Of a DNA stretch of 64,000 nucleotides, positions 46,356 to 46,469 are shown in pieces (position 1 is the stretch's first letter; every line of letters begins with the position of its first letter). The notes beneath the pieces were generated by a model. The model did no database searches. It was given only the letters and a program-made list of their open reading frames with translations, and was not told where the DNA came from. The position numbers and the translations under genes are program-made. Source of the stretch: Phycisphaerae bacterium (GTDB lineage Bacteria > Planctomycetota > Phycisphaerae > SM23-33); assembly GCA_016931655.1 (NCBI GenBank), contig JAFGEJ010000200.1:6015-70014 (forward strand), read 5' to 3'.

Positions 46356-46469
46356 CTTACCTTCTTTTCTTCGCTACTTTTTTCTTCTTCGCCACTTTCT
46401 TCTTCTTCGCTACTTTCTTCTTGGCGACTTTTTTCTTGGCCGCCTTCTTCGCTGCTTTCTTCTTGGCCA
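46356..46469 (-). CDS. 37-aa Lys/Ala-rich highly basic small protein (histone-H1-like tail / nucleoid-associated-like), absent from the ORF track
   Basis: Reverse complement reads ATG GCC AAG AAG AAA GCA GCG ... AGA AGG TAA, giving [37 protein letters not shown]. The ATG is preceded by AAGGAGGTGAAAAGAC, a perfect SD with 7-nt spacing. An intrinsic terminator lies downstream and a sigma70-like TTGCAT-18-TATAAG sits upstream. Confidence 0.6.

Follow-up and report, generated by a model that had tools for sequence, protein, structure and literature searches.

The C-terminal domain of linker histone H1 passes from disorder to helix when it binds DNA, neutralising charge and condensing the polymer, and the condensed nucleoids of the Planctomycetota are poorly explained. 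Very small basic proteins are also known from the ribosome (e.g., bTHX, bS22 and eL41). Chlamydial Hc2 (HctB) and the Phycisphaerae family described below both come from the Planctomycetes–Verrucomicrobia–Chlamydiae (PVC) superphylum. Hc2 is reported to bind DNA and to range from 165 to 237 amino acids (aa) according to its number of Lys-rich pentamers (PMC2848022). The behaviour of the H1 tail on DNA is also discussed in PMC9239181, where the tails of the Pseudomonas proteins AlgP and PhaF are described as intrinsically disordered, DNA-binding in vitro and mutable in repeat number, and the Lys-rich tails of mycobacterial Ku and HupB/MDP1 are reported to modulate the binding of DNA (and RNA) (PMC3553676, PMC13639343). 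Herein we analysed a 64,000-nucleotide (nt) stretch of a Phycisphaerae bacterium contig (JAFGEJ010000200.1, positions 6,015 to 70,014; hereafter the window), which holds on its minus strand an open reading frame (ORF) of 37 codons whose product consists of such a Lys-rich repeat and of nothing else. Judged from its sequence context and its relatives, this ORF is very probably a real, translated gene. What is new here is a family of miniature proteins that consist of the tail alone, occur across the class and are encoded in transcription units of conserved architecture, Lys/Ala-rich bacterial proteins as such being already known.

The product counts 21 Lys, 2 Arg, 9 Ala and 4 Val (62% Lys/Arg; net charge +23; 4.19 kDa) and is built, from residue 2 onward, of (A/V)AKK(K)(K) units of 4–6 residues each; the initiator Met, which precedes Ala, is probably removed, leaving 36 residues. 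Sequence analysis and Pfam gave no signal peptide, hydrophobic segment, folded domain or amphipathic face (helical hydrophobic moment 0.26, mean hydrophobicity −0.7), and AlphaFold2 modelled a single helix over residues 2–36 (predicted local distance difference test, pLDDT, 93), which we read only as helical propensity. Like this family, Hc2 is free-standing and consists almost wholly of Lys/Ala-rich short repeats, and its reported length polymorphism via in-frame repeats (PMC2848022) matches the 20–147 aa found among our loci. Yet the window peptide is 4–6 times shorter, there is no developmental cycle to tie it to, and the match to the Hc2 profile (Pfam PF07382, HC2) is either absent (37-mer) or, for a 97-aa orthologue at locus L092, spans the whole length at 29.5 bits (E 1e-6) below a gathering score of 40 bits. 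The similarity to Hc2 may be purely compositional, such that common descent cannot be shown. The C-terminal KPAA domains of AlgP and PhaF are likewise Lys/Ala-rich tandem repeats of H1-tail-like composition; however, they follow an N-terminal folded domain, are made of Pro-containing units and run to 154–195 aa, whereas the window peptide has neither another domain nor Pro and is far shorter. With the C-terminal domain of linker histone H1 the peptide shares a composition of Lys, Ala and some Val/Thr/Pro and a high positive charge, and by analogy a Lys-rich peptide would be expected to behave like that domain on DNA. The winged-helix globular domain of H1 is absent, and the repeat is the whole of this stand-alone bacterial peptide, while the PAKKA-type tails of Ku and HupB/MDP1, also low-complexity Lys/Ala repeats, are appendages of folded DNA-binding proteins. 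Because a profile threshold is not reached or a folded domain is missing in each case, we did not file the family under HC2, Hc1, the Burkholderia-type H1-like proteins, linker histone H1 or AlgP/PhaF. The resemblance to H1 tails and bacterial H1-like proteins drawn by an earlier note on this DNA therefore stands for composition but not for formal family membership.

The ORF lies in an imperfect 15–18-nt tandem repeat, within an intergenic island of 39–43% GC in a 60% GC genome, and all three minus-strand frames are open across this purine repeat; therefore the ORF alone proves nothing, and the case rests on its signals and on comparative evidence. The minus strand upstream of the ORF reads GGAAGGAGGTG-AAAAGAC-ATG and contains a Shine-Dalgarno (SD) sequence that is a perfect 9-mer, found 2 times in the window against 0.33 expected. 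For the promoter motif CTTGCA-N17-19-TATAA, 0.01 occurrences would be expected in the 64 kb and one is present; a generic sigma-70 consensus scan did not report the CTTGCAT-18-TATAAG site. For comparison we used syntenic loci, i.e., contigs encoding homologues (54–81% aa identity) of the esterase that is the divergent neighbour of the ORF in the window. In an alignment of eight upstream regions, the −35 element CTTGCA is invariant (8/8) and is followed 17–18 nt downstream by a −10 box of the type TATA(A/T)(A/C), and AAGGAG(G/A)TG is invariant 5–7 nt from the ATG. Together with an A-run upstream and ATGGC at the start, these elements are (nearly) invariant in sequence that has otherwise diverged. 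The A/T-rich tract would, going by what is known of strong sigma-70 promoters, act as an UP element. A consensus-like promoter with an upstream A-tract, a perfect SD and a multi-hairpin 3' end are typical of strong expression, which these signals suggest here. Coordinates of all features are collected in Table 1. The earlier note had placed a 37-aa ORF with ATG and TAA at 46356–46469, and we recovered that ORF with exactly the same translation, although one nucleotide off in position and with an explicit minus strand, which had been implied only. Its predicted promoter (TTGCAT-18-TATAAG) and its 12-bp stem with T6 some 100 nt downstream were both confirmed. The note gave a 7-nt spacing for AAGGAGG; by our count the ATG lies 7 nt from AAGGAGGTG and 9 nt from AAGGAGG.

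Table 1 Features of the window and Lys-rich ORFs at related loci.
Feature	Position	Strand	Description
Coding sequence	46470..46357	minus	37 codons + TAA; product of 37 residues
Predicted promoter, C-TTGCAT, 18 nt, TATAAG	46529..46559 (−35 46558..46553; −10 46534..46529; C-inclusive CTTGCAT 46559..46553)	minus	Conserved
A/T-rich tract AAAAATGCAAAAAAAAATTT	46569..46588	minus	UP-element-like; just upstream of −35; A-run there in 8/8 aligned loci
5' leader	46471..46522	minus	~52 nt, from a putative start point; contains SD AAGGAGGTG at 46486..46478
Relic of ancestral last repeat unit	46339..46356	minus	GTT GCG AAG AAA AGG TAG (VAKKR, stop); now first 18 nt of the 3' untranslated region (UTR)
Conserved unpaired stretch ACAGCCCTAAAACTTTGCAA	46338..46319	minus	3' UTR, just after the relic repeat unit
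3' UTR hairpin 1	46318..46292	minus	RNAalifold consensus of 4 loci; compensatory changes at 2 pairs
3' UTR hairpin 2	46291..46270	minus	RNAalifold consensus; covariance model R1
Intrinsic terminator	46257..46224 (arms 46257..46246 / 46235..46224); T6 46223..46218	minus	12-bp stem GCGGCGGATGCC/GGCATCCGCCGC + T6
235-aa Glu/Ser-rich ORF	45842..46549	minus	Outside the gene; artefact of open purine-rich repeat
Hybrid histidine kinase	43661..46192	plus	Convergent neighbour; PAS, HisKA, HATPase_c and Response_reg domains
Lipoprotein-type alpha/beta-hydrolase (esterase)	46966..47877	plus	Divergent neighbour; weak Peptidase_S9/esterase Pfam hits; lipoprotein signal peptide
Lys-rich ORF, L083			37 aa
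Lys-rich ORF, L082			75 aa
Lys-rich ORF, L085			20 aa; not called as gene
Lys-rich ORF, L092/L093			97 aa
Lys-rich ORF, L086			98 aa
Lys-rich ORF, L087–L090			107 aa (118 as called; the caller's 11-aa extension is the SD region read as protein)
Lys-rich ORF, L088			147 aa (158 as called)
Lys-rich ORF, L084			129 aa
nadD/hypB/lysA loci			L097, L098, L104, L111, L119–L122, L127, L132, L135, L138 and about 20 more

Several smaller observations were made upstream of the start codon. In a single-sequence fold, a U-rich part of the leader (GUUUUUUCUUCUGG, 46499–46512, minus) pairs with the first Lys codons (CCAAGAAGAAAGC, 46454–46466), and a similar pyrimidine run is found in L082 and L083; no consensus structure of the 5' leader was supported in the comparison of relatives. 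By eye, a stem can also be drawn between the bases preceding the AUG and an upstream segment; we claim neither this stem nor the pairing of the single-sequence fold. About 30 nt upstream of the −35 element, the motif TGTCGAAATGTAAGAGAAT (46590–46608, minus) is unchanged in L082 and differs by one change in L085 and by two in L083, in surroundings that have diverged, and is a candidate regulator-binding site.

Each of the contigs with an esterase homologue has exactly one Lys-rich ORF, which is always divergent from the esterase gene and, at eight syntenic loci, begins with MAKKKA, MAKKAA or MAKKTA. Lengths vary widely (20, 37, 37, 75, 97, 98, 107, 129 and 147 aa), and gene callers did predict the orthologues of 37 aa in L083 and 75 aa in L082. 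Within the window ORF the repeat units differ almost solely at third positions (first codon GCA/GCG/GTC/GTA/GTG, second GCC/GCG, Lys AAG/AAA), and between the window and L083 all four substitutions fall on codon position 3, accompanied by five indels of 3, 3, 3, 3 and 6 nt. More distant orthologues use other DNA repeat units and have Thr or Pro instead of Val as spacer, with start, frame and a composition of 54% Lys kept. Genes of the family gain or lose (A/V/T)AKK(K)(K) units in frame and so change in length, and 37 aa is an ordinary length for the class, not an extreme one. Of the free-standing mini-protein proposed by the earlier note, the stand-alone part is upheld and the uniqueness is not, the window gene being rather a short allele of a length-variable family. 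In a side observation on two Joint Genome Institute (JGI) metagenome loci with identical flanks, L087 (107 aa) and L088 (147 aa) differ by one 40-aa (120-nt) repeat block; either the copy number truly varies or the repeat was collapsed in assembly.

Metagenome contigs were also scanned with a DNA pattern of the conserved initiation region (AAGGAGGTGA-N5-7-ATGGCNAARAARNNNGC), which gave 120 loci, 94 of them opening a Lys/Arg-rich ORF of 10–102 aa. Beyond the six codons fixed by the pattern, the 2,291 residues comprise 66% K, 17% A, 7% T, 5% V, 3% R and ~0% E; hence the other frames of the purine repeat, which would encode Glu or Arg, are never entered from the frame of the ATG. The share of AAG among Lys codons tracks locus GC (rho 0.82, n = 87 ORFs), from 0.48 below 45% GC to 0.92 above 62% GC, as does the third-position GC (GC3) of Ala/Val/Thr/Pro codons (rho 0.75, n = 87), and third positions therefore behave as synonymous sites. 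Runs of eight or more A occur in 1 of 103 ORFs, whereas shuffling the Lys codons within each ORF predicts ~47 (and no fewer than 36 in any of 1000 shuffles), a rarity that fits avoidance of slippery poly(A) in translation or replication. By computation, then, the locus has the architecture of a gene, conservation of frame and signals, and coding-type evolution: start and frame are conserved, substitutions are biased to third positions and GC is tracked, which is to be read with the caveat that the sequence is of low complexity and the loci are related. Conservation of the frame in relatives was the test named beforehand in the earlier note, and indeed frame, start and composition are kept while nucleotides, repeat units and length change.

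The same DNA can be read as a 235-aa Glu/Ser-rich ORF, which crosses the promoter spacer, the SD and the terminator and then enters, in antisense, the receiver domain of the histidine kinase, a domain supported by Pfam. The boundaries of this ORF and of the other alternative frames are conserved in no relative examined, and the view already taken of it as an artefact holds.

At the 3' end, the terminator stem begins 100 nt past the stop codon and has compensatory changes at 7 of its 12 pairs across seven loci, so that pairing is kept in relatives; a separate terminator occupies the corresponding position in L084. The window gene acquired an earlier TAA through an insertion of 6 nt that keeps the frame (GAAGGT), and its ancestral last repeat unit now lies 3' of the stop, as a relic with the very sequence in which the L083 gene truly ends. 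The four closest genomes have a common 3' UTR layout of unpaired stretch, hairpin 1, hairpin 2 and terminator, and the unpaired stretch ACAGCCCTAAAACTTTGCAA is invariant at 15 of 20 positions in the window, L082, L083 and L085 while the neighbouring stems vary. The consensus fold has three independent hairpins, of which the first begins 38 nt past the stop codon. With a covariance model built on the 3' UTR (R1) we obtained full-length matches right after the Lys-rich ORF in seven further loci (L086, L102, L187, L141, L087, L092 and L084; E values 1e-10 to 3e-4), as well as weak but correctly placed matches in loci of the order Sedimentisphaerales (e.g., L162, E 0.017). Rfam gave no family match for 45500–47500 at E ≤ 1 apart from two chance-level terminator hits (20.1 and 16.9 bits, where the gathering scores are 45 and 79).

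The family extends well beyond the window's own lineage. In ~30 metagenome loci, nadD (divergent) and hypB lie upstream of the Lys-rich ORF and lysA follows downstream on the same strand. The NadD protein of these loci is 92% identical to that of a 'Sedimentisphaerales bacterium', and the loci therefore belong to another order of Phycisphaerae. Their ORFs of 21–72 aa are followed by two hairpins and a strong terminator, and lysA has its own conserved TTGCAA-17-TATACT promoter between that terminator and its start. The adjacency of a poly-Lys ORF to the last gene of lysine synthesis is suggestive, and no attenuator features were found in these lysA loci. A group of 63–72% GC (L103, L106, L115, L131, L139, L140, L143, L144 and L170) has one or two tandem poly-Lys ORFs of 11–13 codons (e.g., MAKKKATKKGKKR, then MAKKKATKKKKK), each with its own GGAGGTGA SD; a conserved hairpin, GGTGGGGGGTGGCGGCCTCCCACC, comes after them, and an rpmB (L28)-like gene faces them in convergent orientation.

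Conventional searches see little of this. For the 37-mer, nothing significant was found in Pfam, NCBIfam, PHROGs or PDB sequences, the only PDB match being ribosomal protein eL36 at a non-significant E of 0.18. A 42-residue probe had no hit at E ≤ 1 among 5.8 billion proteins, and phmmer found no match among 1.8 billion representatives. Pfam HC2 did not hit the 37-mer at E ≤ 1 and scored 11.7 bits with the 75-aa orthologue of L082 and nothing with three other orthologues. Pfam PF07432 (Hc1) hit neither the 37-mer nor the orthologues tested, and Pfam linker_histone did not match the 37-mer. NCBIfam NF038053 (histone H1-like DNA-binding protein) scored 7.4 bits with the 37-mer and 12 bits with the L082 orthologue at a cut-off of 80, and hist_H1_lk_Burk (the Burkholderia-type H1-like family) gave nothing significant for the 37-mer. 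An exact look-up of the 37-mer and a cluster look-up of six orthologue sequences showed that they are absent from the protein collection, though the orthologue genes are called on the contigs. The family goes unseen because of composition-bias correction and low-complexity handling and not for absence of relatives. Literature searches found no paper on such proteins in Planctomycetes or Phycisphaerae.

As to function, we propose that a conserved sigma-70-type promoter with its upstream A-tract would drive a ~300-nt monocistronic transcript made of a ~52-nt leader, 37 codons and a ~140-nt 3' UTR of two hairpins and a strong intrinsic terminator. The peptide would be made in large amounts and would bind polyanions electrostatically and without sequence specificity. 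Chromosomal DNA would be the likeliest target, its phosphate charge being neutralised and the nucleoid bridged or compacted. The peptide may fold to a helix on binding, like the H1 C-terminal tail and chlamydial Hc2, and the repeat number would set its valency. High expression, DNA as the main ligand and compaction are what we infer from the signals and the likenesses above. DNA is our first choice because the nearest proteins in composition and repeat behaviour condense DNA, because the L092 orthologue aligns end to end with the HC2 profile, if below threshold, because Hc2 is reported to have the same repeat-number polymorphism (PMC2848022) and because KPAA-type peptides bind DNA (PMC9239181). 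That there is a real gene and that it encodes a highly charged mini-protein with DNA as its main ligand is, as a complete statement, plausible, and we hold it with moderate confidence.

A number of points weigh against this proposal. Translation and abundance are read from signals and conservation, and the function would follow by compositional analogy only, low complexity preventing a real homology argument; in HC2, hist_H1_lk_Burk, PHROGs and PDB the 37-mer matched nothing significantly. Very short alleles (20 aa in L085, 10–13 aa at many metagenome loci) are ill-suited to multivalent DNA bridging, and length looks weakly constrained, the window gene being simply truncated by its 6-nt insertion. 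Short-read assemblies of metagenome-assembled genomes (MAGs) and metagenomes can collapse repeats (cf. 107 aa in L087 with 147 aa in L088), and many of the loci compared are related, so that the A-run and GC-tracking statistics overstate independence. Synonymous sites of the first 13 codons are also conserved in close relatives, and therefore some RNA-level constraint is present. Lastly, RNA, ribosomes and polyphosphate are equally plausible ligands of a peptide of charge +23.

An RNA- or ribosome-associated microprotein, i.e., a polycationic filler or chaperone on rRNA or mRNA rather than a nucleoid protein, is a less likely but real alternative in our view, with several observations in its favour. 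The physical properties are the same as under the DNA reading, genes of the translation apparatus typically have a very strong SD and promoter, as this gene does, sizes of 10–50 aa dominate the family, one high-GC group lies tail-to-tail with the rpmB-like gene, the disordered Lys-rich region of PhaF is reported as an RNA-binding translation activator (PMC12818456) and the sole PDB sequence match, non-significant as it is, is ribosomal. The size of 25–45 aa, extreme basicity and strong translation signals are shared with bTHX, bS22 and eL41. Yet these are fixed in length and sequence, as ribosomal proteins are with their conserved contacts, whereas the family is a variable repeat with no match but eL36 among solved ribosome chains; its length spans a 7-fold range at a single locus and its spacers V, T and P are freely exchanged, a freedom that speaks against binding at a fixed site, on the ribosome for instance. 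Moreover, the window locus is unlinked to ribosomal operons, and the rpmB adjacency is convergent and confined to one lineage. Binding of another polyanion, above all polyphosphate, with a part in organising or tethering granules as for AlgP (polyphosphate) and PhaF (polyhydroxyalkanoate, PHA) in Pseudomonas, is a real but improbable alternative. AlgP, which was picked by its +55 charge, needs its Lys-rich repeat tail for even spacing of polyphosphate granules (PMC9239181), but AlgP and PhaF have an N-terminal folded domain and the peptide has none. In distant relatives the ORF is indeed followed by the gene of an orphan ParA-like ATPase, of a family that positions cargo on the nucleoid, but this gene has a separate promoter past the terminator and is missing in the window, L082 and L083. 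Similarly, one source labels the neighbouring esterase a poly(3-hydroxybutyrate) (PHB) depolymerase, but the enzyme is an exported lipoprotein, not granule-associated, and its Pfam support for this label is negligible (E 0.33).

It might also be translation itself that matters, with at least 21 Lys codons as a gauge of lysine or Lys-tRNA of the attenuator/leader-peptide type, or the 3' UTR might be a functional RNA, both of which we regard as decidedly improbable. Leader peptides of the his, thr, phe and leu type have just this anatomy of a short ORF rich in one codon family (here 21 of 37 Lys), hairpins and an intrinsic terminator, and in about 25 Sedimentisphaerales loci the ORF is followed on the same strand by lysA, whose product, diaminopimelate decarboxylase, completes lysine synthesis. 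In the window, however, the next gene is the convergent histidine kinase and no same-strand gene lies downstream, and elsewhere the downstream lysA and ParA-like genes each have their own conserved −35/−10 after the terminator. The 3' UTR is conserved enough to be detected by a covariance model, including a 20-nt unpaired stretch after the stop with 15 of 20 positions invariant in four relatives, but its three stems are independent, and no alternative antiterminator pairing was seen in the consensus fold, suboptimal structures not having been searched systematically. Relatives reach 147 codons, where leader peptides do not normally have 75–147, and a pure Lys/Ala/Val/Thr composition across GC of 30–75% points to selection on the product. 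A dual-function unit, in which translation of the Lys codons would report lysine/Lys-tRNA supply while the conserved two-hairpin 3' UTR with its unpaired stretch would be a regulatory RNA or the peptide's autoregulatory site, strikes us as very improbable; if true, the lysA adjacency in Sedimentisphaerales would be a remnant or a live case of an undescribed lysine-sensing type of leader. That there is no gene at all, and an intergenic purine-rich simple repeat happens to be open after an ATG, is scarcely credible. ATG, SD, promoter and terminator are conserved in eight syntenic loci, the frame is held over >2,000 codons in 94 further loci with third positions that track GC and A-runs that are avoided, and divergent relatives change the DNA repeat unit and keep the composition. 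The three open minus-strand frames and the imperfect tandem repeat would suit such a repeat, as would the lack of a homologue in searches based on hidden Markov models (HMMs) and of the exact protein on record, but these negatives are explained by composition-bias filtering and by the absence of such proteins from collections. The antimicrobial role entertained by the earlier note is disfavoured, and a secreted or membrane-active peptide of this kind is extremely unlikely: short, strongly cationic and predicted helical as the 37-mer is, it has no signal peptide, hydrophobic segment or leader-cleavage motif and no adjacent transporter or immunity gene, its helix is not amphipathic by the hydrophobic moment and hydrophobicity given above, and members of 100–147 aa do not fit.

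If the peptide is made as its signals suggest, Phycisphaerae would have a class-wide and probably abundant 'histone-H1-tail-only' microprotein, and with DNA as its ligand it would be an additional nucleoid component for Planctomycetota. It would also offer a minimal natural system for how valency, set by repeat number, tunes polycation-driven compaction of DNA or RNA, and a data point for the idea, cited in PMC9239181, that the H1 tail has bacterial roots. Tryptic fragments of the peptide would be below the size that proteomics can use, a difficulty described for AlgP and PhaF too (PMC9239181), and the annotation of such genes needs pattern- or context-based searches, not profile searches.

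The neighbours of the gene differ in how far they are kept. The esterase is the divergent partner of the Lys-rich gene in all of L082–L093, L102 and L187, and the window's esterase matches a protein from an NCBI 'Phycisphaerae bacterium' MAG at 100% identity, which bears out Planctomycetota, the phylum that the earlier note had in mind. We rejected a link to PHB metabolism via this exported lipoprotein, whose support as a PHB depolymerase is negligible. Its C-terminal Pro/Ser/Arg-rich low-complexity tail (SSSPASARPRPSPATPVRPSASPRTPAPPRRTAPPRPSPRERTYDAPPP, 47730–47877, plus) makes up most of the portion of the protein left uncovered by more distant homologues. On the other side, the stop codon of the histidine kinase lies 26 nt beyond the terminator, and nothing follows the small gene on the same strand in the window, on which ground we rejected an attenuator or leader peptide there. 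This other neighbour varies: the window and L082 have the histidine kinase, L083 has a PfkB kinase, and L084, L086, L087–L090 and L092/L093 have a ParA-like ATPase together with a VanZ-like gene; both of the latter genes are absent from the window, L082 and L083. A contig scan with the hybrid histidine kinase gave only generic hybrid kinases from many phyla and no orthologous locus. The orphan ParA-like genes (L084 8080–8907, L087 4326–5150 and L092 4289–5203, minus; also in L086, L102, L187, L196 and L210) have their own TATAAT box just after the terminator and a GTG start only ~7 nt past it, a spacing that suggests a leaderless-type mRNA, with the gene of the VanZ-like membrane protein next. 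Since the ParA-like gene has its own promoter after the terminator, the Lys-rich gene is monocistronic; a role as partner protein of this ATPase was rejected, given that promoter and the absence of the ATPase from the window, L082 and L083. The loci L102, L187, L196 and L210 have the esterase context, the ParA context or both in common with the lineage of the window.

Two observations stand apart from the gene itself. In L082, a valyl-tRNA synthetase call of 1322 aa (1–3391, minus) has a Pfam hit to Y1_Tnp (IS200-type transposase, PF01797) between synthetase domains, which could be an insertion or a fused gene call. Between the small gene and the esterase, the region 46636–46775 (minus) has a promoter-like TCAACA-16-TATAAT (46775..46748) and a terminator-like hairpin with T7 (46650..46636), with ~100 nt between them; its T-run followed by (C)AAGGA and its AT-rich block are kept in four relatives, and the region could represent either a small transcript or parts of the promoter of the divergent esterase.

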